Virus record (IMG/VR): IMGVR_UViG_3300032290_001460
Coordinates: 1-64,000 of that record
From: a virus
Lineage: Duplodnaviria; Caudoviricetes
DNA length: 64,000 bases
Direction: 5' to 3' (one strand)
Positions within the stretch are counted from its first letter, which is position 1. The number at the start of each line of letters is the position of its first letter. Both the position numbers and the translations under genes were made by a program. Positions 48,601 through 64,000 of this stretch are shown here, one piece after another. The notes below the pieces were generated by a model. It was not told where the DNA came from and ran no database searches. It was given only the letters and a program-made list of their open reading frames with translations.

Positions 48601-51600
48601 GAGAACCATTCGTTGAGTTATCAAAGGCCCTCGAAAATTGGTTAAATAATCATATTTCAGATATGGGCGGATGGGACAAAAGTCACGAAACTCGACTACG
48701 TAGGCAGGTAGAAGATTTAATTTTGAATTTACGTGGCTTGCGAGACAAGTGGCAGTCCATGGGGACTGCTAAACGAAGCGGAATATTGAGACGCATGAAG
48801 ATGGTTGATGGCTACGAACCGCACCCTCTAACTAAAATGTCACTTGAAGATATCATTAGTAAATCAGAATTACGTATTCACGATGACGGAACTCTGTCTT
48901 TCAAATTGCCTCCCAACCCAATATTGCGGCAACTCATACCAGGCAACAGAAATTATCAAGATGTAGAGTTGCCCACTGCTGAAACTGTTAGTGAAATTTT
49001 TGATAATCTCACAAATGATTGGCGCAGATTAGATGAATTATTCAATTCAATATATGAAGTTTTTGATGAAGATGAAGACGGGCGACGTGGAGCGCGCCTA
49101 AGGAAATACCCTGTCGGCGGGGAAAAACTGCCGCACCACTCCTTGTATCTTGGCAAGTACGCTGAACCCCCGACAGAAGCACCATCTCCGGAAGGGGCGC
49201 TCCAATACCACTACAACGACATTTCTGCTCGTATTCTTCAGTATTACATTATCCCTGAATTAGCAAAAATTAAACGCAATGAAAATCCAAAAATTGGAGA
49301 AATCTCCAACGATAACGACCATTTTATTCATGGATATTTACAGTTATTTACAGACCCGCATGCCTGGCAGGAGATGAGTGCTGTGTTGTCTGAAAACTTC
49401 CGTGTATCGCCCGGCACCATATTGCATGACTTATTGGGGCACTACGCCCTTGGTAATACTTTTGATAGACACGGAGAATATGGAAATATTCTTTCAACAA
49501 TTCAACTTGCTCGCGATAAGAAGTTCTGGCAGAAGTTGCGCGAGATACCAGAACTTTCTGACCTATCCGAAGAGGACAGGGACCTCTACATGCGCGGCTT
49601 GCTCGTTGATGTGGCCGCAAGATGGTTTAATCGTGTCGGTACAGACTCCCCGGATGACGAGAGGAGATTGAAGAAGAAAATAGCGTTCTACGATGGACCT
49701 ATTGATGAACTTCTTGACAAAATCGACCCGCCTAACGAACAATCGTCAAGTTCTAGTCGTTCTACACGAAGAATCCCATTAATCGATGTCGATGATAAAC
49801 AACTTTCTGAGTTAGGTAAAGAATCTATTGATGGTATTGCAATAAGAGAAGAATTTATTAGACCATCTTCTCGTGACGAATTAGAACAATTTGTTTCACG
49901 AAGAAAACCGATAGGTTCGGACCTGCCTGTTGATTTACGCACTGGCGAACCTCGCCGCATGTCTCATGAGACAGACAGAGAGTGGAATGCTAGAAGAAAT
50001 AATTTTTATAGAAACAACCCATGGTTTGACCGGCCCCCTATTGATGCTTCTGAAGATTCCCCTAAAATTGATAGAAATAACGAATTTGGTGATGGAGAAT
50101 TAATTAAACCCTCATATAAATTTAATTTTAAATGGAACCAGTATCAAGATTATACTGATGAGGAATTAATAGATAAACTTAAATCAGACAAAAAACCTTC
50201 CAATACTTTGGTGCATGAATTGTCTTTACGTGGATATGAAGTTAGAAAAAAAAGAGAATATGATTTAGGTGATTTTAGTGGTAGGGAAGGATATGACTAC
50301 ACATACTTCTTTGCTAAGCCAATGGATGAAATAACCCAAGAGCATCTTGATAGAAGAAAATCTAAATACAATCCAGTTGATGAAACACAAAAAATAGATG
50401 AGCCGTCAACCAGCATAATTCCTACATTGGAAGAAGACGTTGTTGATGAACAGGATTTTGTTGAGCCAGAAGAATTCCCATTAAAGCCGAAACAGCCCAG
50501 GGTTCCTCGTCCTCGACCCGGTACCAACACCGTGAATATTGGTGGCAATAATTCGGGAATCATAAATCTCGGCAACAATGTGACAATTGATACTGGCGAC
50601 ATAAATGTTTCTAATCAGGGCAGTAAGATTACTATTATTAATGGGAACAAGGTTACTGTTGATGCCAATACGGATGTATTGAGTATGCCATTGAAAAAAG
50701 TTGATGAAGAACTTGCTAGCATACAGAAAGATTTAGCGGAACTTAAAGAAAGAAGAGTAAAGGGCAGTATTTCTGATGCTGATTATGCTCAGCGACGCGT
50801 AGATTTGGCTAATAGGAAAGTTGCTCTCAAATTAAAGAAACATTCCGTCCCTGATGGTGATGCAACCAAGGGCACACCCAATGTTTCCTATATTGGCAAC
50901 AGTTCAAGGTCAACCAGAAATATTGATTATTATCGTAGGGAATTTAATCTTTCTCCAGAAGATTTGGAATTCATCAAATATACCAATGCCCCAGATTTAT
51001 TTTTGCGTGAAGAATTTGGGATAGACGATACAGCCATAGCAGACATTCGTTCTTATGTGCCGCCGTTGGATGTCATCAAGGAAATAGATTCTTTAACCGA
51101 TGATGATGTTAGATTCCTTGAATCTTACGATGGTATTGTTTCACAAATTACTGAAGAATTTAATTCTTTTGTAACTCGGACGATGGCCGAACGTCTTCAG
51201 GCTATTCAATACATAGGAAATTCTAATCTCCCTGAATTGGAAAAACAAGAAAACATAAAAGAAATTGATGATGCATTTAATGAATTATTAAAAGTTAACA
51301 GTGAAATACATTTCGATAGGCTGAATGATGCCGTACTATATACGGCACCTTTAAATTATCGCGGTTTTGGTTGGAGGATGACCCCAGAAAGAATTTCTTC
51401 ACTTGGCTTACCTGAAGGCTATGAAAACAAATTAAAGTTCAATCAGGCTACTCGCATTTGGGAAATGATGAATGGACTGGGCTTTGACTGGGACGAAATC
51501 GAAGATTTCACTGGTTTGACTTTTGATGAATTGAAACCCCTATTCCCACATGTCCGAATTATCGGGATGATACGCGAACAGGAGAAAAACTCTTTAAATA

Positions 51601-54600
51601 ATCCTCCTGAAGATGGTTCTTCTTCTCGTTCAATGAGGCCCGAACGTCGTCAGATAGTCCCAATATCTGGGAATTATACGAGACAAGGTAATTTACATAG
51701 AAAGTTAGATGGACTTCTAACACCCGGCAGTAGTGATTATCGCAAAGATGATTTAAGTGATGAGGAAATATCTGCCATAAAGAAGTTTAGTTACTCCCAA
51801 ACAGTAAGGTACGACTACGACTATGACCCGTTGTCGTTAATGACCTACGAAGAATTAGACACATTATCAAATCTCATAAGTGCAGACAGAGCAAAGTCTT
51901 TAAACGTTGAATTCGATAAAGATTTTCGAAAATTAATCGAACAAGAATTCGACATACGAGACATACGAAATGACCCCTTCAAGTATCGAGGTGGTGGCAA
52001 CGAAAGAAAATTAAAGAGAGAATTCGTATCTGCAGAAGAATTCTTAGGCCCAGGCATGGACGGATATGCAATTAATAGAGGGATGCATGGTGGATGGCTG
52101 TATCCGGATGGACGCATATATCCGCTACAACAAGATTCCCACGGTACTGAGTTTGTTTATCGTGATGCTTTTGAAGATGGTTTAATTCGGATTATTTTCT
52201 CTCAAAAAAGTCAAAGGCGAGATTCATCTATGGATTTGGAAATAGCAGACGCTCGACCAACTCCAGAGCAGTATGAGACTTTACAGAAACTTATGGATGC
52301 TGGAGAACCTAGTGAAATACGTTTTGCTGCTGGTAAAAAAAGTGAGGAGTATGATGCGTCTTATACTTCTCGACCCACTTATCAGTATGAGAATGTTTTA
52401 CGTGGCAAAGATACTAAAAAATTAAAAGAATCTTTGACGCAAGAAGTTTCATGGAAGCAAGAAGAGTCTACTAGTGATGACAGTTCTTCTTCTCTCTCAA
52501 AAAAGGGAACATATCGACCTCTTCTTGGTCATACGTTCGAAGGTTATGGTCAAGCGGAAAAGAAGTTGTCATACAGTTTAGAAAAATTAAGTAAACAAAA
52601 TGGTGCTGCCAAAAAATTAAACGATGAAGAAAAAAATGTAATTGAAAAATATTTTCAAATCAAAAATGCAGATGCAGAGCCATTGAGATTACTCTCAGAT
52701 GATGAAATAAAAACTTTACTTAATTTAATTAGTGAAGAAAAACTGACAGTGAGAAATGCCGACCTATCTGCAGAACTGTTGGGTGTTTATAGAAAAGATG
52801 CAGAATATTTACTTATACGAGAATTAGATATTCGTTCCAACCCTCAAAAATATAAGTTTGGTGGAAATGAAAGAAAACTAAAAAACAGATTTCTTTCAGC
52901 AAAACAACTAGTCGACCCTGAAACAATGGGTGTTTGGGAGACTCCATCATTACGGGCAGCATGGCTTTATCCAGATGGAAGGCTTTATCACGTAACTGAT
53001 GGACATACAAAAGAACATACCTACAACGACGCTTTTGGAGATGGTCTTATTAGGTTGAATGTAAGTTTGGCCAAGGAAAAAGATGACAGAGGTCCAGCCA
53101 CCGCTCCATTTTTGGCTATACATGCAGCCGACATAGCCCCTACTGCTGAGCAAATGAAAATATTAGAGGAACTTATTGATGTAGCCAAGCCGAAAGAAAT
53201 CTTCTATCAGGCTGGAGTGAGTAGCAAAATACATAATCCGAACGAAGTTATTCCTGACGACTCCGACTTTGGCATCTATGTAGAAGGTGAACGAAGTGGA
53301 ACTATAAAATCTGGCGACCTGAAGAAAAGGCTGAAGCAAGAATTGGATGCAGTTGGCTGGGCGAAATTGCCAGACAACGACTCTTCTTCTCGTTCCAAGA
53401 AAGATACAGATTCTGATTTATCTGACGAAGAATTTAAAATCATCGACGATTTTGTTAATGCTGATATCGACAACATTGAGCCAGTTGAAGAAGAACCTAC
53501 GGACGGCCGAACGCGTCGGGCTCGTGCAAAAAAAAGAGAAGAATTCTTAAGAGATGCTGTTACTCAAATCATCAAACTTTCAGAAAATGCGGAAAAATTT
53601 AAACGTGGGCCAGATGCTGGTGAAGTCTCTGGAGGTCTTTTGGAAAAGGTGGCACAGATGTTCGCCGCAGGAGACTATAGCATCATAGATAAATATGAAA
53701 AAATAGTCAAAGAAAAAGGCGCAGGAACAAGCCCGGGTGAATTTTTTGCTAACTCATATTATAAATATGAATCACTTGGCGCCGAACAAAGATTAGAACG
53801 CCAAAAAGGTGGAAACAAGCAAAAGGGCAAGTTTGTTGAAAATATAGAAGCATTAGAAGCAAAAATAACTGATGGGGAAAGTAGTTTTGTTTTGCCAGAA
53901 TTGTCTATAGAAGATGATTTGAGCGTCGGTGAAATTGATGAAGACGTCGCTAAGAAAATTGCGTTTTATGATAAATTTGAAGAATATTTACCCTTACATG
54001 CAGAAATTATGGGATATATCGGGTCTGGGATGACTGCATCTAAAATTAGCAAGCAAACAGGAGTTCCTATAAAGATAGTTAATGCGATGAAAAGCAATAT
54101 GGCTTTTATTGCAGAACAATTGGGCGATATTGAAAATTGGCCCCTGGATTCACTGGACGAAGATTATCGGGATATAGCGAAACTTTTGCCAGGTGACGAT
54201 ATGTCGTTAAATTTGGATATTGCCAAACGTCTTCAAAAAGCAAAAACATTTTTTGAAACTATCGAATTTGATAGAGATACTGGAGAAATAAGTTTCGAGC
54301 AAACATCAATTGCTCAAAGACAAATTAAACTTGAAAAAAATAATGATATTATATTGTCATTTTTTGAGGACGGGAAGCCTGCTCCGACCATAGAGGAAAT
54401 TGCCAAAGCCCTTGGCGTTACGTTCGATTCCGCCAGAGGGCTAATTGTTAGATTGCGGAAAACTACTGGTAGAAAACTGAAAACTGGGAAGAAGGAAGAA
54501 AATAGCAAAAAAATAGATGATGATATTTTATCTTTATTTAAAGATGCTGAAAATCCACCGACTAAGAATGAACTGACGAAATTGACAGGACTATCACAGG

Positions 54601-55871
54601 ATGCAGTATATATCCGATTAATTAAATTGCGTGAAAATACTGGTCGAGAATTAAGCCTCGCAACAGATGACGAAAGAATAAATAATACAATTCTGTCTTT
54701 CTTTAAAGATGGCGGAAAATCGCCAGATATGAAGAAAATAATGGAAGTAACAGGCCTGCCATATAAAGCGATACATAAAAGACTAGTAAGGTTGCGTAAG
54801 AAAACTGGACGTGAACTAAAACTGGAAGGGCAGCGAACGAGCGTAATAGGAGATATTGGTGAGACTATTTTATCGTTTTTCGAGGATGGTAAAATTCCGC
54901 CAACTCGCGAACAACTAGCAGATGCAACGGGTTTGCAATTAGATTCGATAAGTCAAAAGTTATCTAAATTACGAGAAATAACTGGGCGGGATTTGCCAGT
55001 TCGTATAAATCGAACAATTGAGCCGAAAAGTGCAGAAATAAACAATACAATTTTATCTTTATTTAAAGATGATGAAAAAAATCCTACTAGTGCTGAAATT
55101 ATTGAAGCGACAGGGTTGACGCGTTCAATGTTGGGGAAAAGATTGGAATATTTGCGTAAAAGAACTGGGCGTGAATTAAAACTAAGAAAAAAAGAAAATA
55201 AAGAAAAAAAACCTAAATTGGTTGTTGAACGCAAACCTAAATTGGTTGTTGAACGCAAACCTGGAGATACGTCCAAAGAAGAAAAAAAGACTCCAGACGA
55301 ATTGGTCTTATCTTTATTCAAAGATAGTAAAACGCCCCCAACCATGCAGGAAATAGTAAGAGAATTAGGAGTGTCGTATCCGGCTGCGAAAGAACGGCTT
55401 AAGAGATTACGCCAAAAAACCGGCATGGCATTGTCAATTACTCCCGTGCCGGCGATGCCAATATTAAATGATGCCATAAATCAACAACTTTTATCTTTGT
55501 TTGAAAATAATAAAAATATAACTACTGAACAAATTGCGAAAGCAACAGGGTTGTCTGTTTCTGCAATAAAGGGCAGATTGGTTCGTTTACGAAAAGAAAC
55601 AGGAAAAGAGTTATCTATTAGTAGAGACCTGCCACCAAGCCTTAGAGATGATATTAGTAAGACTATTTTATCATTTTTTGAAGAAGGTAAAAGTGCACCA
55701 ACCCGACAGCAACTAGTGGACGCAACGGGATTCTCCGCAGATGGAGTAACTAGACGCTTACAAAAATTGCGTAAAGGAACTGGGATGGACCTACAACTCG
55801 CCGGAACCAAAACCCCCGAAGGTCGAACCACAATGCCGAAGTTAGAAATTATTCCACCAAAAGAAAAATAA
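42606..55871 (+). CDS. 4421-aa prohead protease-fused modular (polyvalent-like) protein
   Basis: First ~170 aa are HK97-type protease (GNKDSVGD, WGHNW..PIG, WSIGY, LYEVSPVLHGAN). Then SRS-motif-delimited modules, a KTSC-like segment and 8 C-terminal HTH repeats. Confidence 0.85.
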   Translation: MSQGTFEDIHFKAMNGQFNIDEAQGIVECFVAAVGNKDSVGDIVASGAFTESLKRRKPRVVWGHNWNDPIGKVLEIYEVPAHDPRLPGKMKQAGVGGLYAKVQFNLATEKGREAFASVAFFGGDQEWSIGYKTLQANFDSAMQANVLREVELYEVSPVLHGANQLTATISVKSDEGEKCHSPAMGAGMPMMPAVMRAFKPGIPEGGPSRISARIGYDVSSPREDIFAEGEARELNREEIYRLEEELMSRSNNRLKIISATENMVTFHRMLPNGSSTAYRLPYHYDTAVRQYMFGKPEKMGQGPSQPQPQTVVPMQMPSMPMSVKPNAVSPYAMVNGGYDGEKSVEERLHEVIAGLKLPLFDDEVAEKSQQDKIEEVVNLLQSYIEEKSEPMRVIMKCEPHQAFRVKELLDPVIEYHGLQAEVSEKGVHLSGTFNDETLDALYASEKSIQRMFMKEGGWGKDNGPTGPTFEVEVKALGGRVGQRIGGGLSAAPPGMVWVDVTGAIDGDSDGIVFEGTPMQRPIIPRAMIPKVQASILQQTSLPRAMEMERNRVPKPSVSQEDSKPRLNQVPKKNESDSVVPSKPIPKIDDTIPTPSKAPKKTQGRKSRKSPPTNPNIYDPWVYRNSGTERILGNEFSIITPLDEIINSVSSRSKKLTPKEIIDNYAYFLNYRGLDTQQVFKIFENHGYVNTEKVNQTISDELKFAIDDIIAAGGRIVFAQNNLLINLGGNKLIIDLLDKDSYSNVRQQLSMPLKQLYVKERKTVTNISDLSPRYNYLKPELKKLKEKYGDYFVIRALDAGHYSAVLFDPISGDPLKTYQFSGSPRSTSNLLKNLSSEFTNAAVVRRFESAKIWKPAREVIDKVPLRPANEGETPKFGPLSGTSKLVQIFSELGFSPDSKEYPNALVELEIHDIGDGKFGVYGVIVDEDGIEHLVSQEQDGLADSLDFLRALGSEYSQSQLSEMRSAHLRRMGVVGQLGDTSGLSQEVEEMRAARDERTYNQWFVDDGSRSQRTPTLIYNTAAKSIRDIFDDEKTWDPFFEDLKDVLGHSQKQSQRLLDLYDDPNATEEAITNLEESIRELDEQIAAVIDYAKFLNGENRRARLKRLKNPLINKMIDERTGGEYSDFTDAEIERLRNNLTFSENDISDIFGVEGSDKARNFVESMQDVLDDAEWYDGILSSPIEDENNPDYLENPSQELYDDAIRSLSMEIDFIKDARKRNHQQRLAISDGSNLSDGTSRSQRSFINGRGVGETRQIFPNEDKQGTSKKIKYARYDGRKEELLVEYSSGETITYGGVTDRMVSAVEKSLDDIDGGIDGIKAEARYSIKPDGQIEGRAVSVATLVQRDIERLEQYDVITAKDKLWMQLAANAILSNFEEPPEYELLSLSDQLANVANKLAREYEENSAALNLLEIKSSIDDRVGNGLGGTRGTRMYRPLKDETTLDLTNDEIGELRDEIQSILNKHGDRITFAPFAEFDKALKDAQDSNKNNVTIKNNLHSALTVAYDELYWMASHSQAEKRWLNPIGETLLNIAAASGRFTSPRLSANRGDFKGVPFNNGAPSRMTPEARTTLIDWANGDGLGFYVLKDIRDSYRLRNGNLTSRQWNTLANMYRRFGPGGSDRKDSSSRSKKDTEIYYAIVPSDVPDQIDDEEEEKPKPKKPVGKPASELLPGDFDSMTAKEKIDVMFQIGRATKDNPDGIAPEDWDRLIYPLDKELDVEEAVQNQAEFMAAQEAAAMRGEVLTEEQFYENKSRQAELHDRRTIQRALSEYDAGRPELLQKLGLRRENFIIKADREYKAPTKPKPLGKWATDFSMKIRSQIEKAIANGLAGEEHLDPWLSMEELINDNDGLLDEETIQNIIPVLEEYVSAYDGAEFGHRSEGNSYKQANDMIEELENTLSILLDPTIIEDDSDDSGDDKKDSDAASEVPDTTQGVSLSIEGDSGSKSRRSSSMASTTGRQDAVDSGSNQINSEDSSRSIREVIKLEDLLEIDKREQSEDMGEPFVELSKALENWLNNHISDMGGWDKSHETRLRRQVEDLILNLRGLRDKWQSMGTAKRSGILRRMKMVDGYEPHPLTKMSLEDIISKSELRIHDDGTLSFKLPPNPILRQLIPGNRNYQDVELPTAETVSEIFDNLTNDWRRLDELFNSIYEVFDEDEDGRRGARLRKYPVGGEKLPHHSLYLGKYAEPPTEAPSPEGALQYHYNDISARILQYYIIPELAKIKRNENPKIGEISNDNDHFIHGYLQLFTDPHAWQEMSAVLSENFRVSPGTILHDLLGHYALGNTFDRHGEYGNILSTIQLARDKKFWQKLREIPELSDLSEEDRDLYMRGLLVDVAARWFNRVGTDSPDDERRLKKKIAFYDGPIDELLDKIDPPNEQSSSSSRSTRRIPLIDVDDKQLSELGKESIDGIAIREEFIRPSSRDELEQFVSRRKPIGSDLPVDLRTGEPRRMSHETDREWNARRNNFYRNNPWFDRPPIDASEDSPKIDRNNEFGDGELIKPSYKFNFKWNQYQDYTDEELIDKLKSDKKPSNTLVHELSLRGYEVRKKREYDLGDFSGREGYDYTYFFAKPMDEITQEHLDRRKSKYNPVDETQKIDEPSTSIIPTLEEDVVDEQDFVEPEEFPLKPKQPRVPRPRPGTNTVNIGGNNSGIINLGNNVTIDTGDINVSNQGSKITIINGNKVTVDANTDVLSMPLKKVDEELASIQKDLAELKERRVKGSISDADYAQRRVDLANRKVALKLKKHSVPDGDATKGTPNVSYIGNSSRSTRNIDYYRREFNLSPEDLEFIKYTNAPDLFLREEFGIDDTAIADIRSYVPPLDVIKEIDSLTDDDVRFLESYDGIVSQITEEFNSFVTRTMAERLQAIQYIGNSNLPELEKQENIKEIDDAFNELLKVNSEIHFDRLNDAVLYTAPLNYRGFGWRMTPERISSLGLPEGYENKLKFNQATRIWEMMNGLGFDWDEIEDFTGLTFDELKPLFPHVRIIGMIREQEKNSLNNPPEDGSSSRSMRPERRQIVPISGNYTRQGNLHRKLDGLLTPGSSDYRKDDLSDEEISAIKKFSYSQTVRYDYDYDPLSLMTYEELDTLSNLISADRAKSLNVEFDKDFRKLIEQEFDIRDIRNDPFKYRGGGNERKLKREFVSAEEFLGPGMDGYAINRGMHGGWLYPDGRIYPLQQDSHGTEFVYRDAFEDGLIRIIFSQKSQRRDSSMDLEIADARPTPEQYETLQKLMDAGEPSEIRFAAGKKSEEYDASYTSRPTYQYENVLRGKDTKKLKESLTQEVSWKQEESTSDDSSSSLSKKGTYRPLLGHTFEGYGQAEKKLSYSLEKLSKQNGAAKKLNDEEKNVIEKYFQIKNADAEPLRLLSDDEIKTLLNLISEEKLTVRNADLSAELLGVYRKDAEYLLIRELDIRSNPQKYKFGGNERKLKNRFLSAKQLVDPETMGVWETPSLRAAWLYPDGRLYHVTDGHTKEHTYNDAFGDGLIRLNVSLAKEKDDRGPATAPFLAIHAADIAPTAEQMKILEELIDVAKPKEIFYQAGVSSKIHNPNEVIPDDSDFGIYVEGERSGTIKSGDLKKRLKQELDAVGWAKLPDNDSSSRSKKDTDSDLSDEEFKIIDDFVNADIDNIEPVEEEPTDGRTRRARAKKREEFLRDAVTQIIKLSENAEKFKRGPDAGEVSGGLLEKVAQMFAAGDYSIIDKYEKIVKEKGAGTSPGEFFANSYYKYESLGAEQRLERQKGGNKQKGKFVENIEALEAKITDGESSFVLPELSIEDDLSVGEIDEDVAKKIAFYDKFEEYLPLHAEIMGYIGSGMTASKISKQTGVPIKIVNAMKSNMAFIAEQLGDIENWPLDSLDEDYRDIAKLLPGDDMSLNLDIAKRLQKAKTFFETIEFDRDTGEISFEQTSIAQRQIKLEKNNDIILSFFEDGKPAPTIEEIAKALGVTFDSARGLIVRLRKTTGRKLKTGKKEENSKKIDDDILSLFKDAENPPTKNELTKLTGLSQDAVYIRLIKLRENTGRELSLATDDERINNTILSFFKDGGKSPDMKKIMEVTGLPYKAIHKRLVRLRKKTGRELKLEGQRTSVIGDIGETILSFFEDGKIPPTREQLADATGLQLDSISQKLSKLREITGRDLPVRINRTIEPKSAEINNTILSLFKDDEKNPTSAEIIEATGLTRSMLGKRLEYLRKRTGRELKLRKKENKEKKPKLVVERKPKLVVERKPGDTSKEEKKTPDELVLSLFKDSKTPPTMQEIVRELGVSYPAAKERLKRLRQKTGMALSITPVPAMPILNDAINQQLLSLFENNKNITTEQIAKATGLSVSAIKGRLVRLRKETGKELSISRDLPPSLRDDISKTILSFFEEGKSAPTRQQLVDATGFSADGVTRRLQKLRKGTGMDLQLAGTKTPEGRTTMPKLEIIPPKEK
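54342..55800 (+). repeat. Eight tandem HTH-like domains
   Basis: Consensus ILSxF[KE]D....PT..[EQ]I...TG......RL.[RK]LR..TG..L, eight copies. Confidence 0.85.
55209..55262 (+). repeat. Perfect 24-nt tandem duplication (KPKLVVER x2)
   Basis: AAACCTAAATTGGTTGTTGAACGC twice, plus AAACCT. Confidence 0.9.
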
Positions 55872-56157: not shown

Positions 56158-57954
56158 ATGAATTACGACGAAAAAGCCGTAGTGAAAATTGATGCCGAAG
56201 GTGGCGTCGTCAAATGTGCCAAAGGTGCAACAGGAAGCGACTGCGGCTACAAGGCAGGCGCAAAAGTTTGTGGAAAATGCGGAGCAATGGCCGTTGAAAT
56301 CAAAATGGTTCCCGTCGATGCCATGGACGAAGACATGGAAGACGACGAGGAGATTACTCCTGAAGAACAGAAAATGTTGATGCGTCGTCGCAAGGCTATG
56401 CAAATGGGCATGGGCGATATGGCCGAAGAAGAAGATGTCATGGACGACGACGAGGAGATGACCCCCGAAGAACAGAAAATGGCCATGGACTACGAAAAAA
56501 TGATGCTCAAGCGCAAGGGCATGGGCAAATATACGGAAGACGAAGAAGTCTTAGAAGTGCCCGAAGAAGACGAGATGATGGACGAAGAAGCCGTCACCCC
56601 AACAGCAAAAACTTATGGAATGAATCGCTTTAGAAAAGGCATGCCTGGGGTTTCGGCCATGGATGAAGATATGGCCGAAGAAGAAGATGTCATGGACGAC
56701 GACGAGGAAATGACCCCCGAAGAACAAAAAATGGCTATGGCCTACGAAAAAATGATGCGTATGCGCAAGGGTATGGGCGAATACGTGGAAGACGAAGAAG
56801 AAATGCTTAGCCCTGCCAAGGGGATGGGCATGACGAAGCCAGGCATGAAGTTCAAGAATCCAATGGCTAAGCCAGGAATGGCCGGAATGCTTTCGGACGA
56901 AGAAGATGACATGGACATCGAAGAAGAACTCCCATTGGACGATGCCGAAATGCCAATGGCAATGCCCAAAAAGAAGAACTACATGGGGGCAGAACCCAGC
57001 GCAGTATCTCCAGACATGGAAGCAATGCGCATGGCACGACTTAGAAAACTCGGTACCAAGTCTGCTGACATCGGTGCCAACGGATACTTGTGTGCTATCG
57101 AACGCAAAGTCTACCCCGGCGCCAACTCGGTATGTGACGACTGCCCAGGTGGATGCGTCTCAGAAAAAGGAATGCCTGGCCTCCTCCACATCGAAGGCCT
57201 TGCAGAACAAATGTTCAAGGGCGACGTTATCGACTCTGGCTACTCGCAAGAAGCCGACATGTTCGTCGTTGATGTCCAGGTAAAGTCTGGTCATGTCAAC
57301 GAAGTTTTTGTTGACGGCACAACCGGAGAAGTCCTAGGATTCCATCGCCTTGACGATTCAGTGTTCGAACAGAAGTCACTCGTCAGCGACATCGAAATCA
57401 TTGACTTCAACGAAGCGGCAGATATTGCTGTCAAGTCAATCCCCGGTACAGTAGTCGCCGTAGAACCAGCAATCTTTGAAGGTTTTGACTCATACCAAGT
57501 CGAAATCGATGGTCTTGACGGAAAATCTTACGATGCTTTCGTTTCGCTTGATGGCGAAGTTTTGGGCTACGACCAGTGGGACAATGACGACACAGCAGAG
57601 ATTGAGGCTGAAGCCGCAGAAATTGCTTTGAAGCGCGCATTCGGTGACGAGAAGCGTCAAGAAATGGCTGAAGAAGGCACAGCAATGCCTGACGGCTCAT
57701 TCCCCATTGCCAGCGAAGAAGACCTTCGTAACGCAATCATGGCTCATGGTAGAGCGAAGGATGTTGAGGCAGCAAAGCGTCATATCATGAAGCAGGCTGC
57801 AGCAATGGGTAAGGAAGACATGATTCCAGCAGAGTGGGTCGCCGGACAGAAGAATCTTTCAATTGAAGATGATTTGAACGGCACTGACGAGTTCTTGAAG
57901 ACTTTGGTTGAGTTTGAATTAATGTCTGCAGAAGTTTCCGACAACGAACTGTGA
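56158..57954 (+). CDS. Acidic Met-rich head-associated protein with Cys clusters, PepSY-like domains and a PDGSFPI (DUF6582-like) domain
   Basis: AAGGAG RBS. CGY..VCGKCG and C..CDDCPGGC clusters; EAADIAVKSIPGTVVAVE..YQVEI..DG.SYDAFVSLDGEVL; AMPDGSFPI..DLRNAI..GRA. Confidence 0.75.
   Translation: MNYDEKAVVKIDAEGGVVKCAKGATGSDCGYKAGAKVCGKCGAMAVEIKMVPVDAMDEDMEDDEEITPEEQKMLMRRRKAMQMGMGDMAEEEDVMDDDEEMTPEEQKMAMDYEKMMLKRKGMGKYTEDEEVLEVPEEDEMMDEEAVTPTAKTYGMNRFRKGMPGVSAMDEDMAEEEDVMDDDEEMTPEEQKMAMAYEKMMRMRKGMGEYVEDEEEMLSPAKGMGMTKPGMKFKNPMAKPGMAGMLSDEEDDMDIEEELPLDDAEMPMAMPKKKNYMGAEPSAVSPDMEAMRMARLRKLGTKSADIGANGYLCAIERKVYPGANSVCDDCPGGCVSEKGMPGLLHIEGLAEQMFKGDVIDSGYSQEADMFVVDVQVKSGHVNEVFVDGTTGEVLGFHRLDDSVFEQKSLVSDIEIIDFNEAADIAVKSIPGTVVAVEPAIFEGFDSYQVEIDGLDGKSYDAFVSLDGEVLGYDQWDNDDTAEIEAEAAEIALKRAFGDEKRQEMAEEGTAMPDGSFPIASEEDLRNAIMAHGRAKDVEAAKRHIMKQAAAMGKEDMIPAEWVAGQKNLSIEDDLNGTDEFLKTLVEFELMSAEVSDNEL
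56416..56800 (+). repeat. Near-identical internal duplication (~130 nt units starting at 56416 and 56668)
   Basis: DMAEEEDVMDDDEEMTPEEQKMAMxYEKMMxxRKGMGxYxEDEE twice. Confidence 0.85.
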
Positions 57955-57986
57955 TTCATAGTTCTATTTAGGGATTGGAGCCCGGT

Positions 57987-60900
57987 ATGACGGGTAGGAG
58001 TATCCCTCGCCGATATTCAAAAATAAATCAGAACACGAAGACTACTTCGCGTATTGAAAAGTCTGCTGTCCATTTTCGTTCTTTGCAGGAATTTTCGGCT
58101 ACTAAACCTTTCATGGACCCAACTATTTCTGTCAAGGTTCTTGGCGATGGTCTGAAATCTTCTGGGTCCGGCGATGGCAAGGAACGTACTAGTGGGCCTG
58201 ATGGCGACGAATATGATGGTCCTGTAATTAAACTTGACTGGAATCCTCGTGCGAAGAGGAAACCTGGTCAGATTTTGAAACTGCATGCTTCTTATAGGGA
58301 GTTGACTTCCAAAGAGGGAGCGAAGTGGGGTTGGGTGGACCCTCCTAAGGAAGTTAGTGCTGAAGATAGTGCAAGATTTTTACAGCAAGCAATTGAATGG
58401 AAGAAAAAACAACCAAAAGCAGTTTTAAAATTATATAAAAATACTTCTCATGGCACGCATGAATTGGAGCCAGTTAAAGAAATTAATATTAAGACTTTGG
58501 CTGAGTCTTTCAATTTTGAAAACTCACAAGATTTTTATTCAGGAAATTTTCATAATGCTCTTTCAGAAATCCCTCTCGAATTTAAACAATTAGGGCAAAC
58601 TATCGGACAAATTTTGCCTGGTCAACGAATTGACTTGGCTCGTGCTGTTAGTCGGGGATTAATAGTAGACGCAAACGGTAAATTCAGGTGTCCTTCAGGG
58701 ACTCCAAATGCCAACCAATTCACTGACTTGGACATGTCTAACTGCTCAACGTTTAGTCCAAAGAAAATTGCTGGAAGATTAGACAGGGCTATTAGTCGGT
58801 TTGAGGCTTGGAAGGAAGAGGGCCTAAGACTAGCGGACGAACGAGACATGATTGACTCTATTAACCCGCGTTTCCAAAGAGCCAAAAAAAATTATACGAC
58901 CCTTGACCGTAATAGGGAAATTGAAGAACGTTCTCAAGACATTATTAAAACTATTTTAAATATGCCAGAACTTCGCCAGTTCTTGTTGGATAATGGCTTT
59001 GACCCAAGTGATGACACTACCGTAAATAATGCTGATTTATTTGCATATATCATGCTGTACGATAAGACGTTTGAAAGTCAACCCGATGCATTAGACCGCC
59101 AATTATCAAGAATTGAAGGACTGTTTGGAGATGCTTTGGTTTGGGAACCAGTTCTTGATAGCCAAGGTAACCCCGTTATGGATAGCCAAGGTAACCCCGT
59201 TATGAAGGCACGACCTTTTAAATATGATAGGAATAAAAACTTTAAAGAAAATATGGCGGACTATCGTGAAGCCGTAGGGAATACAATACTTTCGATAATT
59301 GGTGACCAGAGACTTACTTCAGGTAAAAGTTTGAGCGATGCTCTAAAAAATTATAAAAACCCCACTCATCCTTTGCATTCCCAGTATCTCGAAGCAAAAG
59401 TGATTTTGGATAATTTTATGTTGACGCACGAGATGGTGCAACGTGGAACATTGATGACGTATGCTCAACATTCCGTAGAAAACCCTGAACAATTCGGGAT
59501 AATAACCAAATTTGAAGCGTTTATGCCGGAGCACGTTACACCTGGGGCTCCAGTCGACGACGAAACCATTGCAGCATTCTGGGCCATTGAGGGTGAGATG
59601 GCCTCTGGGGCTGGCATGGGTTACCAGACTGCAAAAATTATGCGCTCCAATACTTTTCAAATGATGTTCTCCCCCTTTATAGATATGCGTGCTCTTGCTC
59701 AAATTACGGAGCCAACTCCAGAAAATCCTTATGGATTGACAGCAAAACTAGATTTTCAGTCACAGGGGAACGTTGAACTTTCTCTTCAAGAGAAAATGCA
59801 ACTTTGGAGTCAAATGCTCAACCAGATTCAAGATGCTGACACTTTTGCCAGAATGCTTCGACAACAAGCGCGAACAGATGAAGAAAAGATGTTCGTACAA
59901 TTACAAGAACAAGTTAAGCAAAGACAAGAGCAACTAGGTCGAATTTTTGTTGGTGCTGAATTACAAAATGAACTACGCAATATAGCCAAAAGAATGGGCA
60001 TTAGCGAGGATGCTGCTTCTAGGATGTGGTATCAATTCTCCAAAGCATCAAATATGTTTGCCAACGACTTGTCTGCTTCAAGAATAACAGAACTAAATGG
60101 TGGAATGAGTTTCAATCTTGCCCTTCAGGCCAAAGCGCGACATGTCGCATGGCACGAAATAGGACATTCACTGCAATATTATTCGGCTGGTAAAAGAATT
60201 CAAGAATTTGTTGACGCCGAAGGGGGCTTTCCTTTATTCAGAGACGGAAAATTAATTAGAGAATTAGGGCCGGATACAACGCAATGGACTAACGACGACT
60301 GGCGAATGGCTGTCAATAGTTTAGTACTAGACGCCCCACAACTTATTACTCAATGGCCTCCTGATGGTGTTGGTAAATTTGAAGAAAAAATGCTCCATCT
60401 TCTTTCTGGAGCATATTATCAAAATGAAATAAAAGACTTTTGGAAAAATCCTTCTAGCGTGAGTCCCAAATTGGCCGTTGCTTTAACGGAAGCGCACGTT
60501 GAACTCTATGCTCTCAAAAAAATGGGCGTCATAGAAGGTGATGATATAGATACTACTTTAGAGTATTTTGAAAATATTATTCCATCACGGGGGTATAGGT
60601 CTCCTCCCGCCCCCATATCACCGAACCCTCCACCGCAACCACCTGCTCCTCCAGGTCCTCCTGCTCCTCCAGGTCCTCCAGGCCCTCCAGGTCCTCCAGG
60701 CCCTCCAGGCCCTCCAACACCACCAACACCACCAACACCACCAACACCACCAGGTGGTGGTCGCACCGTGACTATTGGTGGCGATAATACTGGAATCGTC
60801 AATCTTGGCGATAATGTAACAATTGAGACCGGCGACACATTTGTTGTCGGCGACATTATCATTGATGGCAAAAAAATTGACCCAGATAACATTACTATCA

Positions 60901-63900
60901 ACATTAATGTGACATATGTTTATCCTTCAGGTGGCGGGGAAGAGCCAGACAAGCCGAAAATTGATATTGAAGTTGTAGATACGGATGGTCAACCACCAGT
61001 TCCTGAAGATTTATGGCCTCGTATTGCGAGTCATATATCAGAAGACCAAGCAACGCAATGGGAACATGCACCTCGCGCCAAAACTAGAGTTGGACGAGAT
61101 AGGTCTCGTATTAAAGACTGGACTGATGAGGTTTTTGGTTTAACTTCAGAAGACAAAGAAGTTGGTGGTGCTGGAGACGAGACAGGGGATGCTTTTGGTC
61201 AGACAAAAGCATATTCAGAGATGACGCCAGAACAACTAGATGCTCGTTTTGAAAAAATTAAATCTGAGACAGACAAACTATTGGAACGCTCCAAGACTGA
61301 GCCGTTGTCGGAAAATGAACAAGCAAAACTGTGGCTTGGGTTAAAGAGTCTACGTTACCTTTTGCACGTAAATCGTGAACGTTCCCATATGACGGACGAA
61401 AAACGTGCCAAGGCTGAAGAGCGTGGATACAAGACTAAGCCAGGAAAATACATGTCAAAGGCTGATGGGACATACCCACCAAGCAGAGTGTCTAAGTGGA
61501 AGTATCGTACTGCCCTTGAACGCCATGCTGCGGCTGGTGGTGTAGAGATTTCTGAACTTGACGAAGATGAGTTAGTTCACTGGCTTCGCGAGATTGGGGC
61601 TCATGCTGGTTCTAATTTTGATGGTCGTCCTGGTTTTGATGCTTCTAGTTCACCTTATGAAAAAGGTAAGTTGCGTGAAAAAGCAAACTTTATAACTTCC
61701 GCTGATGCGGAAGCCGATGTTGATGACGCGACTACTCCTTCTGCCGCTACCGTCGCCCCATCAACTACAGGAACCCCAGACGTTGACGCTCCTGATTCTG
61801 CTACGCCTTCTGCCAGTAGTCCTAGTAAGAAACCTAGAAAGCCAAAAGTTACTGGAAAAACAAGCCCTAAGGAATGGGGTAAAAAAGAACGTGATTTCAT
61901 TCTTGAATGGCAGGCTGGAAGTGTTGGCGAATTCTTGGGAGGTGACGAGCCAATCAATGAACGTGAATCTTTTGGCATCCTCTTGGGTGCGTTTAATGAA
62001 GAAGGTATGAGTTCGCTAATACGTCGTTCGTACGAGGCAAGAAAGAAATATATAGAAGGTACCGATAAGCGCCCAAGTAAACCTAGCCCAAATGAAACTT
62101 CTCCTTATATAGATGAAGAAATTACTGAAGTTATTGCTCCCATGTTAAGACTTTTGGACGAAACACAAATTTCGGAAGACATTGAAATTCATTATGTTAT
62201 TCCTAGTGAGTTGGGGGCAGACGTTGGTACTGGGGAAATAATGGAAGTCGGCAGTTTGACTAGAGGAAAAATTATTGATGCAGAATCCTCTGTTGACATG
62301 GGTAGCAGTGAACTATCTGCTTCTACTCGTGTGAAGATAATTGTTCCTGCTGGTTCCCGTGGAATGCCTGACAAGAACTCTCATAACGGTGATATTGATG
62401 ACATTATTCTTCCACCCGGAAGTTTTGTTATCGTTGACGTAGACAGTGATGGAACAATCACTGCGATACCTCATTATCAGAAAAGTGCCCCAGAAGTTCT
62501 AGAAGCGATGCTTGATGACTTGCGTGAACTCCCTGCTCCAGAAAACGAGTTAGAACGTTTAGAACGTGAACGTATCGCTATAGCGATTAATGATGCCAGA
62601 GCAGCAAAACCAGCAGGCGGAAGAATTAGTAATCGCGATGGTGCGGGCATACCTGGTGCTCCGGACGAGTCGCAAGTTCCTGATGATTTTGCTGAAAGTT
62701 CACGTTCACAACGCGGTGTTAGTAAAACTGCAATTCAGCAAAATAGAATGAAGTCAAGAAATATTGACGCCTTGAATTCACAAAAAAAATCAGGAAGTCA
62801 ACCATTCGCGCAAAACGAGAGTTTTGTCTCTTTGTCAACCATTAGTCCCGAGTATGAAAAAATAGGGATGTATATAAGCCCTGTCGAGGTCCAATCCAGA
62901 CAAAAGCAAATTGATTCTGCTGTAGCAAATATTACAGAATATAGTTCTCAACTCAAGAAATTAATCGAAAATCCAGATGCCGACTTTCTTGAACTAAAAG
63001 ATTCAGTCCCTCCTGATGTTTTTGAATTTGTTTCAAAAGCAACACCAGAAGAATTGAATAATATTGTATCTAGCACTTTATTTGATTTCCATAAAGGTTT
63101 TGATGACCGGGTGCACGTCCCTATTCAGGTTTCTGGTTTTGATGACGTAATGAAATTTGGTCGAGTTCGTCCAATAACTGAAATCAACCCAGACAGTAAT
63201 GTTTCTCGTATGCGTTCTGCACGCGAGTTAAGCATTGGCATATCCCCAATAGCAGAATCGCGAGCGAGAACAGTTGATGGATATTTGCGCCATACTTCAC
63301 ACCAGGATGCAATTCAACAACACTTAGACTCTTTGCCTCCTTCTGCAGTGAAAAGAAATATTAACAACTTTTTAGATACAGAAGAATTTTCTCCATTTGG
63401 AGATATTCGCAAAGGCGACGCCTCTATAGATTTAGTACTATTCCCAGAAGTATCTCGTCGCTCTGGATATGTTCGAGGCGACTTTATGCGCTCAGGCAAC
63501 ATCCCGACACCTATCCTCTCCGAATCTATGGATGATGTCAGTGCCGCACATATGTCATTGTCTGATTTGGGGCCATCCGATAGAAATGCCAAGTTGAAAC
63601 AAATTTTTGATGTTGTTGATAGCAATCTGACTGGCAAGAATAGTAAATTATTTTCTAGTTCTAGTAGTAGAGGTAAATTACAGAGCGATAAGTTTGATGC
63701 AGTTGTTCCTAATGGCGTCGACTTTGATGAAGTTTCAGAAATCAAAATACCTAATCGTATTCTTGATACAAGTAAATTTACTTTGTCTATTGACGAAATA
63801 GGTGGGGTTGACATGTTGAAGGAGAACGGTTTTTCTCCAAAAGATAGAGAACTCTTATTAGCGAAGATTAATTCTGGTGAGATTAAATTAAATAATGCAA

Positions 63901-64000
63901 AATGGCTTGTAGAACACCGTGCGGCAAAAGAATGGCAGGACGGTTTCCGTCAACGATTCGGAAGTACTACGGCATTAACGTTCACAAACCCTGATGGTGT
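57987..64000 (+). CDS. Giant (>2000 aa) multidomain protein, truncated by window: zincin HExxH, Pro-rich linker, degenerate ART-like segment
   Basis: GGAG RBS then ATG at 57987 (MTGRSIPRR...). Same frame at all spot checks to the window end, and its absence from the ORF track fits having no stop. KFRCPSGTPNANQFTD at ~58680, HEIGH at 60153-60167. Confidence 0.8.
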   Translation, partial: MTGRSIPRRYSKINQNTKTTSRIEKSAVHFRSLQEFSATKPFMDPTISVKVLGDGLKSSGSGDGKERTSGPDGDEYDGPVIKLDWNPRAKRKPGQILKLHASYRELTSKEGAKWGWVDPPKEVSAEDSARFLQQAIEWKKKQPKAVLKLYKNTSHGTHELEPVKEINIKTLAESFNFENSQDFYSGNFHNALSEIPLEFKQLGQTIGQILPGQRIDLARAVSRGLIVDANGKFRCPSGTPNANQFTDLDMSNCSTFSPKKIAGRLDRAISRFEAWKEEGLRLADERDMIDSINPRFQRAKKNYTTLDRNREIEERSQDIIKTILNMPELRQFLLDNGFDPSDDTTVNNADLFAYIMLYDKTFESQPDALDRQLSRIEGLFGDALVWEPVLDSQGNPVMDSQGNPVMKARPFKYDRNKNFKENMADYREAVGNTILSIIGDQRLTSGKSLSDALKNYKNPTHPLHSQYLEAKVILDNFMLTHEMVQRGTLMTYAQHSVENPEQFGIITKFEAFMPEHVTPGAPVDDETIAAFWAIEGEMASGAGMGYQTAKIMRSNTFQMMFSPFIDMRALAQITEPTPENPYGLTAKLDFQSQGNVELSLQEKMQLWSQMLNQIQDADTFARMLRQQARTDEEKMFVQLQEQVKQRQEQLGRIFVGAELQNELRNIAKRMGISEDAASRMWYQFSKASNMFANDLSASRITELNGGMSFNLALQAKARHVAWHEIGHSLQYYSAGKRIQEFVDAEGGFPLFRDGKLIRELGPDTTQWTNDDWRMAVNSLVLDAPQLITQWPPDGVGKFEEKMLHLLSGAYYQNEIKDFWKNPSSVSPKLAVALTEAHVELYALKKMGVIEGDDIDTTLEYFENIIPSRGYRSPPAPISPNPPPQPPAPPGPPAPPGPPGPPGPPGPPGPPTPPTPPTPPTPPGGGRTVTIGGDNTGIVNLGDNVTIETGDTFVVGDIIIDGKKIDPDNITININVTYVYPSGGGEEPDKPKIDIEVVDTDGQPPVPEDLWPRIASHISEDQATQWEHAPRAKTRVGRDRSRIKDWTDEVFGLTSEDKEVGGAGDETGDAFGQTKAYSEMTPEQLDARFEKIKSETDKLLERSKTEPLSENEQAKLWLGLKSLRYLLHVNRERSHMTDEKRAKAEERGYKTKPGKYMSKADGTYPPSRVSKWKYRTALERHAAAGGVEISELDEDELVHWLREIGAHAGSNFDGRPGFDASSSPYEKGKLREKANFITSADAEADVDDATTPSAATVAPSTTGTPDVDAPDSATPSASSPSKKPRKPKVTGKTSPKEWGKKERDFILEWQAGSVGEFLGGDEPINERESFGILLGAFNEEGMSSLIRRSYEARKKYIEGTDKRPSKPSPNETSPYIDEEITEVIAPMLRLLDETQISEDIEIHYVIPSELGADVGTGEIMEVGSLTRGKIIDAESSVDMGSSELSASTRVKIIVPAGSRGMPDKNSHNGDIDDIILPPGSFVIVDVDSDGTITAIPHYQKSAPEVLEAMLDDLRELPAPENELERLERERIAIAINDARAAKPAGGRISNRDGAGIPGAPDESQVPDDFAESSRSQRGVSKTAIQQNRMKSRNIDALNSQKKSGSQPFAQNESFVSLSTISPEYEKIGMYISPVEVQSRQKQIDSAVANITEYSSQLKKLIENPDADFLELKDSVPPDVFEFVSKATPEELNNIVSSTLFDFHKGFDDRVHVPIQVSGFDDVMKFGRVRPITEINPDSNVSRMRSARELSIGISPIAESRARTVDGYLRHTSHQDAIQQHLDSLPPSAVKRNINNFLDTEEFSPFGDIRKGDASIDLVLFPEVSRRSGYVRGDFMRSGNIPTPILSESMDDVSAAHMSLSDLGPSDRNAKLKQIFDVVDSNLTGKNSKLFSSSSSRGKLQSDKFDAVVPNGVDFDEVSEIKIPNRILDTSKFTLSIDEIGGVDMLKENGFSPKDRELLLAKINSGEIKLNNAKWLVEHRAAKEWQDGFRQRFGSTTALTFTNPDG
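59157..59204 (+). repeat. Perfect 24-nt tandem duplication (DSQGNPVM x2)
   Basis: GATAGCCAAGGTAACCCCGTTATG twice. Confidence 0.9.

Follow-up and report, generated by a model that had tools for sequence, protein, structure and literature searches.

A serine/arginine junction peptide shared by the giant head-block proteins of an uncultured tailed phage, and its lineage-specific versions in related phages

The head-gene block and its recurrent motif

We analysed a linear, 106,308-bp phage record from IMG/VR (IMGVR_UViG_3300032290_001460; Duplodnaviria, Caudoviricetes; CheckV completeness ~71%), the first 64 kb of which (positions 1 to 64,000) are referred to as the window. The element in question is a six-residue Ser/Arg peptide, S-S-R-S-Q-R, encoded at 62697-62714 on the + strand within the second of two giant open reading frames (ORFs). 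Head genes follow one another on the + strand in the order portal, first giant ORF, scaffold-like protein, second giant ORF, ORFs of 539, 2740, 536, 978 and 1825 amino acids (aa), and major capsid protein. The portal gene (40410-42497; phrog_2662, E 1e-58) forms the upstream border of this block and the major capsid protein gene (94000-95319 of the record) its downstream end. The first giant ORF (42606-55871, 4421 aa) encodes an S78 prohead protease in fusion with a cargo polyprotein; nine S-R-S-x-[KR] sites occur in it, and winged helix-turn-helix (HTH) units form an array at its C-terminus. Its Peptidase_S78 domain, of the HK97-type prohead serine protease family (42660-43133, residues 19-176), scores 41 bits against Pfam PF04586 (cut-off 21) and matches phrog_80 at E 7e-27. 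It is the single S78 domain recovered in a search of the whole record, and its translation contains V-V-W-G-H and E-W-S-I-G, in which the catalytic roles of His and Ser are assigned by analogy. The scaffold-like protein (56158-57954; 598 aa, acidic, with Met-rich repeats) lies between the two giant ORFs. The second giant ORF opens with TTG at 57975 (first ATG at 57987) and reaches its stop at 68063 of the record, beyond the window end; the window part (57975-64000) represents the 5' two thirds of a 3362-aa protein that matches no PHROG family and gives only one weak Pfam match, under the curated cut-off. The - strand of the window carries genes for the tail sheath, fibre-like proteins, the large terminase and a PAPS reductase. 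We regard the phage as a myovirus because of the tail sheath and fibre-like genes; the host marker WhiB is absent from the record.

Positions 62691-62714 read in frame as GCT GAA AGT TCA CGT TCA CAA CGC, giving A-E-S-S-R-S-Q-R, followed by a Gly codon at 62715-62717. The peptide S-S-R-S-Q-R occupies residues 1575-1580 of the second giant ORF and its core S-R-S-Q-R residues 1576-1580 (62700-62714); the site scores 22 bits with a weight matrix of the motif. A scan of the 85 called genes of the record gave 24 matches to S-R-S-x-[KR], corresponding to 23 non-overlapping sites, all of which reside in six + strand genes between the portal and the major capsid gene. Nine sites belong to the 4421-aa ORF, four to the 3362-aa ORF, one or two to the 539-aa ORF, four to the 2740-aa ORF, one to the 536-aa ORF and four to the 1825-aa ORF. 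The sites in the first giant ORF are SRSKK (44553-44567, residue 650), SRSQR (45624-45638, residue 1007), SRSQR (46314-46328, residue 1237), SRSKK (47481-47495, residue 1626), SRSIR (48525-48539, residue 1974), SRSTR (49755-49769, residue 2384), SRSTR (50904-50918, residue 2767), SRSMR (51624-51638, residue 3007) and SRSKK (53388-53402, residue 3595), all on the + strand. Those in the second giant ORF start at residues 1576, 2076, 2190 and 2371, the last three lying on the + strand beyond the window at 64200, 64542 and 65085 of the record. The portal and scaffold-like proteins lack the motif. Zero matches were present in the other 79 genes (20,407 aa, compared with 13,423 aa in the six motif-bearing genes), among them those for tail sheath, tail fibres, terminase and PAPS reductase.

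This density is far above chance. Composition-preserving shuffles gave 0.78 matches on average with a maximum of 5 in 2000 runs, and shuffling within 30-aa windows gave 0.89; the second giant ORF taken by itself has 4 sites where 0.19 would be expected, and 0/5000 shuffles reached 4. Permutations of the motif with the same composition are rare (0-6). With the weight matrix, the 23 sites score 16-25 bits and all other sequence in the record 15 bits or less, and the full consensus reads [S/G/T]-S-R-S-x-[R/K]. The best motif-like match outside the head block, GDSSRAKRT (19951-19977, - strand, residue ~644 of the ORF at 17296-21882), was rejected as a site. The position reads GDSSQSKS in homologues 77-82% identical and is missing from more distant ones, and we treated the match as chance because it is not conserved. 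Its 1528-aa ORF, also on the - strand, has no family match and is a presumed tape measure from its place in the tail gene block.

Selection on the motif operates at the protein level. At the three Ser positions (one before the core and two within it) all six Ser codons, AGY as well as TCN, are used, and the Arg positions are encoded by CGT, CGC, CGA, AGA and AGG. Given this codon mix, the constraint is on the peptide rather than on the DNA. When 60-aa flanks of the sites were compared, 2/1035 pairs were similar, neither involving the residue-1576 site, and the DNA flanks show identity at the random level (median 28%, maximum 43%). A DNA-level repeat or recombination signal was rejected on the basis of the codon diversity and random flank identity. 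The same data bear on whether the recurrence arose by chance, from Ser/Arg-rich low complexity or through duplication of a segment between the two giant ORFs. The motif proteins are indeed Ser-rich, and the giant ORFs do have short modules in common (a PIGSDLP...ETD segment, a KTSC domain and a G-G-D-N-x-G-I-x-N-L-G-D-N-V-T repeat), but the 24 observed matches against 0.8-0.9 in either kind of shuffle, the rarity of permuted motifs, the unrelated flanks, the varied codons and the conservation of the motif in orthologues refute this explanation, to which we assign a practically negligible probability. The first-pass annotation of this DNA had proposed, from the sequence alone, that the motif recurs in the second giant ORF, that the signal acts on more than one gene and that it does not consist of internal repeats of one protein, and had suggested a genome scan for confinement to head-region proteins. 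The recurrence is confirmed here and the inferences are supported, and the scan restricts the motif to the portal-to-capsid block of the record.

The site under study lies in a predicted disordered linker downstream of an ADP-ribosyltransferase fold

An AlphaFold2 run on an eight-sequence alignment modelled residues 1340-1544 of the second giant ORF (61992-62606, + strand), just upstream of the site, with a predicted local distance difference test score (pLDDT) of about 60-90 that dips at a few loops. Residues 1547-1640 (62613-62894, + strand; model residues 208-301) have pLDDT below 50 and form a predicted disordered inter-domain linker, with coil around the motif. Foldseek matched residues 1340-1544 to PDB structures of the C3larvin, C3bot, Certhrax, iota and VIP2 ADP-ribosyltransferases (E 3e-5, probability 1.0), with TM-scores by target of 0.4-0.48 to 4tr5, 2c8b and 1qs1, and neighbours of the domain in the ESM Atlas carry ADPrib_exo_Tox with a score of 0.95. 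Pfam gave no match over the domain even at E up to 10. Of the features relevant to the catalytic signature of ADP-ribosyltransferases (ART), R / S-T-S / E-x-E, the domain has an invariant Arg and an S-x-T-R stretch, and the expected place of E-x-E is occupied by D-I-D here and by E-T-D in a distant homologue. The modelled domain is a C3/VIP2-like ART at the level of fold. The annotation had placed the motif at the end of a linker following an ART-like segment, in agreement with the model, and had named burial in a folded domain as one observation that would speak against a signal; the site is found instead in the predicted disordered linker.

The site is retained in 6/7 homologues of the second giant ORF (P0004-P0010). 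SSRSQRGVS is kept in the five close ones and PSRSTRGKS is found in one that is 27% identical; the seventh has a degenerate AREVRG. The preceding ~25 residues vary and include a 10-aa indel. When the second giant ORF is compared with these homologues, the similarity breaks off at most 14 aa from sites 2076, 2190 and 2371; the stretches between sites thus behave as cassettes. The 2740-aa protein, in which Pfam identifies Zeta toxin, pentapeptide-repeat, ArdC-N and MPTase-PolyVal (127 bits) domains as well as a weak PI3/PI4-kinase match, has an ArdC-N plus MPTase unit (residues 1548-1816) bracketed by sites 1526 and 1875, and its Zeta domain, with a start at residue 675, comes after site 592. A second AlphaFold2 model, of residues 2040-2420 of the second giant ORF, has its three sites in coil, but at a mean pLDDT of 45 it is too unreliable to count as evidence. 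Viral contigs searched with just the one ART-plus-linker segment as query returned zero relatives.

Lineage-specific versions at orthologous junctions in related phages

IMG/VR contains 381 relatives by portal and 379 by capsid protein. In 76/76 portal-linked loci examined, an S78 domain starts the ORF directly downstream of the portal. S-R-S-x-[KR] itself is used by the closest relatives only; others have G-S-K-S-T-T, G-M-R-S-R, S-M-R-S, S-T-R-S, G-M-S-S, G-V-R-S-R, [R/K]-L-S-S-G, F-S-S-G-R, G-F-S-S, I-S-G-R-M or P-T-A-S-M, each of which recurs 4-18 times in the equivalent giant ORFs, compared with at most 0.2 expected. The versions are found in portal-proximal and capsid-proximal genes of one and the same contig, as in L014 and L086.

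These versions occupy the same junctions. A relative's own version was found within 15 aa at 36/47 distinct orthologous junctions, compared with 4.5 expected. Within the first giant ORF, relatives show their own version at 6/7 orthologous junctions for the site at residue 1237 and at 7/7 for that at residue 1626; the junction corresponding to residue 1007 reads GSKS in L008, DSSRSIRE at residue 1974 is aligned to VSMRSIRE and RSTRSIRE, and VVSSRSKR-DTKK is aligned to PVGSKSSTR, GQRLSSGKL and VNGMASRSK. The site under study behaves likewise, as AESSRSQRGVS of the second giant ORF is aligned to PIGSKSTTRGVS in an orthologue from the G-S-K-S-T-T lineage (GSKSTTR-GVS). The occurrence of the relatives' own versions at orthologous junctions, including the site under study, is the strongest evidence for a functional signal with a co-evolving reader. 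A shared reader that co-evolves with the junction signal is well supported by these comparisons of sequence, consistent with the shared processing machinery that the annotation had argued for. The peptide M-S-R-S-N-N-R, which follows the protease domain, was rejected as a site since its alignment column, conserved and helix-like, stays the same whichever motif version a lineage uses.

The motif versions also cluster on the protease tree, where 26 changes are needed, compared with 43.6 after shuffling (0/200 shuffles as low). Protease residue 51 (42756-42758) is Glu where the motif has a basic third position (Arg or Lys); the L-S-S-G (19/19) and G-F-S-S (8/9) lineages have Lys there. This residue may be a charge-complementary lead for a specificity determinant.

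Two other explanations can be weighed on the versions. The first holds that a host protease reads the signal after injection or in the infected cell, so that versions would track hosts rather than a phage enzyme. The versions do differ between lineages that may infect different hosts, and a host protease is known to process capsid proteins of Staphylococcus aureus phage 80alpha, as cited within PMC8569155. However, close relatives with nearly identical protease domains already differ in version (SSRSxR versus GSKSTT, SSRSxR versus GMRSR), one pair of phages with differing versions has 85% capsid identity, and the lack of any motif in non-head genes is unexpected for a general host site, which together make a host reader very improbable. 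The second explanation, which deserves somewhat more credit but is still improbable, is that the peptide is not cleaved at all and serves as a docking or modification motif (phosphorylation or glycosylation of an invariant Ser) or as a handle for a packaging or ejection factor in linkers. One Ser is common to the main versions (S-R-S, M-R-S, L-S-S, F-S-S, S-K-S), and the Zeta toxin domain and weak PI3/PI4-kinase match of the 2740-aa protein are kinase-like; on the other hand, the motif sits at module boundaries and recombination breakpoints in up to nine copies per protein and a protease heads the system, features that suit processing better, and we identified no modifying enzyme common to the lineages.

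In several relatives the protease and cargo frames are separate. In L012 (at ~13587), L020, L022, L024, L026, L027 and L035, the protease ORF stops a few codons past a conserved GGT GGT TCA AAA AAA T run and the cargo ORF is open in the -1 frame; L023 has a variant of this run. A_AAA_AAA is the classic -1 slippery heptamer. A candidate stem for frameshifting begins 5-9 nt downstream, at the same position and with different sequences in two clades, and has z = -2 to -3 in 6/7 loci folded. From these sequence features, the protease/cargo junction of the relatives looks like gag-pol-style programmed frameshifting. At the equivalent place in the window (43960-43990; GGT GGT TGG GGA AAA), the two frames are fused directly.

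A putative cutting signal and its candidate readers

We propose that S-R-S-x-[KR] is a cutting signal between modules that is read by one phage protease, most probably the S78 enzyme, and put the probability of this reading at roughly 0.55. A cutting signal is the most likely function because of the recurrence in six proteins, the location in a disordered linker after an enzyme domain and the presence of the relatives' variants at the same junctions. In the scheme that we infer for packaging, cleavage, enzyme identity and injection of the modules, the six large portal-to-capsid proteins would be loaded into the prohead, most of them probably via a common N-proximal tag and the first giant protein via its direct S78 fusion. 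One phage-encoded protease, most probably the S78 protease itself, would then cut at the signal to give separate modules, such as the ART-fold domain upstream of the site under study and the ArdC, Zeta-kinase and pentapeptide modules of the 2740-aa protein, which would stay in the head and subsequently enter the host with the DNA. The S78 domain at the head of the module in all 76 loci, the clustering of versions on the S78 tree and the residue 51 pattern favour S78 as the reader, as do the basic P1 residue of HK97-like capsid cleavages and the single-motif precedents of T4, phiKZ and SPN3US.

The tag, a candidate capsid-targeting element of ~55 residues, has the pattern K-x-L-G ... D-x-D-x-D-G-[IM]-V-x-[ED]-G-T ... 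R-P and is encoded in the first giant ORF at 44016-44198 (+ strand, residues 471-531). Further copies lie at 71837-72010, 73484-73660, 81494-81622, 83246-83416, 86443-86613 and 97373-97549 of the record, one per protein. It occurs once each in seven head-block proteins, namely five of the six motif-bearing proteins and two further ones, and is always N-terminal to the sites; a hidden Markov model (HMM) built from six copies retrieved the seventh at E 4e-23.

Several observations weigh against this proposal. The record is only ~71% complete. The tag HMM gives nothing significant in the second giant ORF (E 45), which leaves the packaging of this protein unsupported. The junction between the delta domain and the mature part of the capsid protein (GASAQRTQ-FKSIG) lacks S-R-S-x-[KR]. 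Covariation at the capsid junction was sought with weight matrices of 17 lineages, comparing own with other capsid junctions, and no consistent own-lineage preference emerged; a visible match of the capsid junction to the own version is limited to the L-S-S-G lineages (QLSSRE) and a few others. The own-lineage version is missing from the 598-aa scaffold-like protein and its homologues in every lineage tested. Hydrophobicity within 15 aa of the 23 sites, used as a proxy for linkers, is not significantly different from that at random positions (0.277 versus 0.291, p = 0.09). The G-M-S-S lineage, with Glu51, is an exception to the residue 51 pattern, which could moreover reflect a single evolutionary event.

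The absence of the motif from the capsid and scaffold-like proteins would also fit a reader other than the head-maturation enzyme, and zincins within the cargo are rival candidates. The second giant ORF contains a HEIGH zincin motif in its N-terminal part (60153-60167, + strand, residues 727-731) and a HEWGH motif at residue 3110, and the 2740-aa ORF has the MPTase-PolyVal domain with its 127 bits; any of these might cut at the signal, in the head or after injection. Iyer et al., in the part of their account considered here (PMC5512222), predict that MPTases free domains by autoproteolysis. The HEIGH region is present in 4/5 partial relative records and the MPTase in 3/5, and the second giant ORF is the sole motif-bearing protein without the tag, with 1575 residues free of sites. 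These points also count against S78 as the reader. However, neither zincin is present in all relatives searched (records 48-84% complete), the ArdC-type MPTase has sites on either side of it just as other cargo modules do, and it is S78 that heads the module in every locus examined and has a residue that tracks the motif charge. We consider a zincin reader unlikely, though less so than the host-protease and non-cleavage explanations.

Cleavage of many proteins at one short motif has precedents among phages. The prohead proteases T4 gp21 (L/I-x-E), phiKZ gp175 and SPN3US gp245 ([S/A/G]-x-E) cut many head and ejection proteins at a single short motif (PMC5694885; bioRxiv 2026.03.04.709575). The present phage is like these in having a prohead protease in the head module and one short motif common, beyond chance, to many head-associated proteins, sometimes with several sites per protein. 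In those phages the motif follows N-terminal targeting or propeptide regions; here five of the six motif proteins have the candidate targeting tag ahead of all their sites, and the second giant ORF does not. The differences are that the T4, phiKZ and SPN3US enzymes are of the gp21 type with measured cleavage after Glu, whereas the putative enzyme here is an HK97-type S78 protease fused to its presumed first substrate; that those phages mark capsid and scaffold with the same motif, whereas the capsid and scaffold-like proteins here are without it; and that the signal here is a six-residue Ser/Arg peptide between modules of giant multi-enzyme proteins. In HK97-like phage phi12, Arg or Lys occupies P1 of the capsid cleavage sites (PMC8569155). 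The S78 domain resembles HK97 gp4 and phi12 gp32 in scoring above the family cut-off and in its WGH and WSIG motifs, and the basic P1 of phi12 is compatible with a cut next to the motif Arg/Lys. In contrast, the portions of the literature on HK97 gp4 and phi12 gp32 considered here give as known substrates the delta domain of the capsid protein and the enzyme's own chain, and describe no strict consensus or multi-gene cargo code.

Polyvalent proteins of phages and conjugative elements are giant strings of unrelated conflict domains whose genes lie beside virion genes; the part of the source used here (Iyer, Burroughs, Anand, de Souza, Aravind 2017, PMC5512222) predicts that they are packaged and injected and may be processed. 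The giant head-block proteins of this phage qualify as polyvalent proteins, the 2740-aa ORF by its multi-domain content and the second giant ORF by its ART fold and zincin motifs. The likeness extends to the ArdC-N, MPTase, ART, Zeta-like kinase and HTH domains and to the nearby portal, terminase and capsid genes. The passages of that account considered here invoke autoproteolysis by an embedded MPTase and, unlike the present system, describe no inter-module peptide signal, prohead-protease fusion or lineage versions. In our literature search we came across no account of a cargo polyprotein that is fused to S78 and has junction peptides specific to each lineage. What is new here is that related phages have their own versions (GSKSTT, GMRSR, STRS, RLSSG, GFSS and others) at orthologous junctions, including the site under study.

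Viral polyproteins, such as those processed by potyvirus NIa and picornavirus 3C, have protease-specific junction peptides, and gag-pol proteins are made by frameshifting. RNA-virus polyproteins belong to viruses of eukaryotic hosts and hold replication and structural proteins. The present system is like viral polyproteins in its protease at the head, in short junction peptides that differ between relatives and co-vary with the protease, and in the -1 slippery site of this phage's relatives, which would fix how much short product is made relative to fusion product; unlike in RNA viruses, the substrate here would be accessory cargo encoded by several genes of a tailed DNA phage. A broader generalization, which we advance tentatively and at somewhat less than even odds, is that hundreds of uncultured relatives make up a family in which the protease of head maturation has co-evolved with a junction peptide of six residues. 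Each lineage would have its own pair, orthogonal to the others (we saw at least a dozen versions), for cutting swappable cargo cassettes out of several giant proteins in the capsid, with the protease joined to the cargo directly or by a gag-pol-like -1 frameshift. Tailed phages would thereby have re-invented a polyprotein strategy of eukaryotic RNA viruses as a means of delivering an arsenal of enzymes.

The recurrence of the motif in a second gene shifts the picture from repeats in one protein to a code read in trans. If the peptide is a cut site, one 18-base element would show how giant phage ORFs that resist annotation can be parsed into functional units, one enzyme would service many genes, and the lineage versions would offer natural protease/site pairs for studying the evolution of specificity and for orthogonal cleavage tools. 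Freshwater phages encode VIP2-like ADP-ribosyltransferases that were interpreted as 'Trojan horse' toxins directed at protist grazers (PMC6802176); on the cut-site reading, at least the ART fold here would act on the bacterial host instead, as a module delivered by the virion in the manner of T4 Alt.

Among cultured phages, actinophages match only the first ~173 residues of the protease (~40% identity), and Gordonia phage ChisanaKitsune has neither the tag nor the junction motif. These comparisons thus offer no cultured model. The C-terminus of the scaffold-like protein (PDGSFPI...AHGRAKD...) resembles that of the 501-aa protease-scaffold fusion of ChisanaKitsune by eye, with no alignment run. 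The 598-aa protein is probably this phage's scaffold, with a gene of its own.

The two giant ORFs have further sequence elements in common. A module of the form T-V-x-I-G-G-D-N-x-G-I-x-N-L-G-D-N-V-T-I occurs in three copies across them, at ~50500-50640 (residues ~2640-2680 of the first ORF), at 60830-60950 (residues ~955-990 of the second ORF) and at ~65640 of the record, and both copies in the second giant ORF come after a Pro-rich spacer (PPGPP or PKKPRKP). The end of the first giant ORF (54000-55800) has ~10 winged-HTH repeats with LexA, MarR and AsnC-type matches, and a single HTH of similar kind closes the second giant ORF (~67900-68060 of the record); the terminal HTH units of both ORFs may be DNA-binding cargo.

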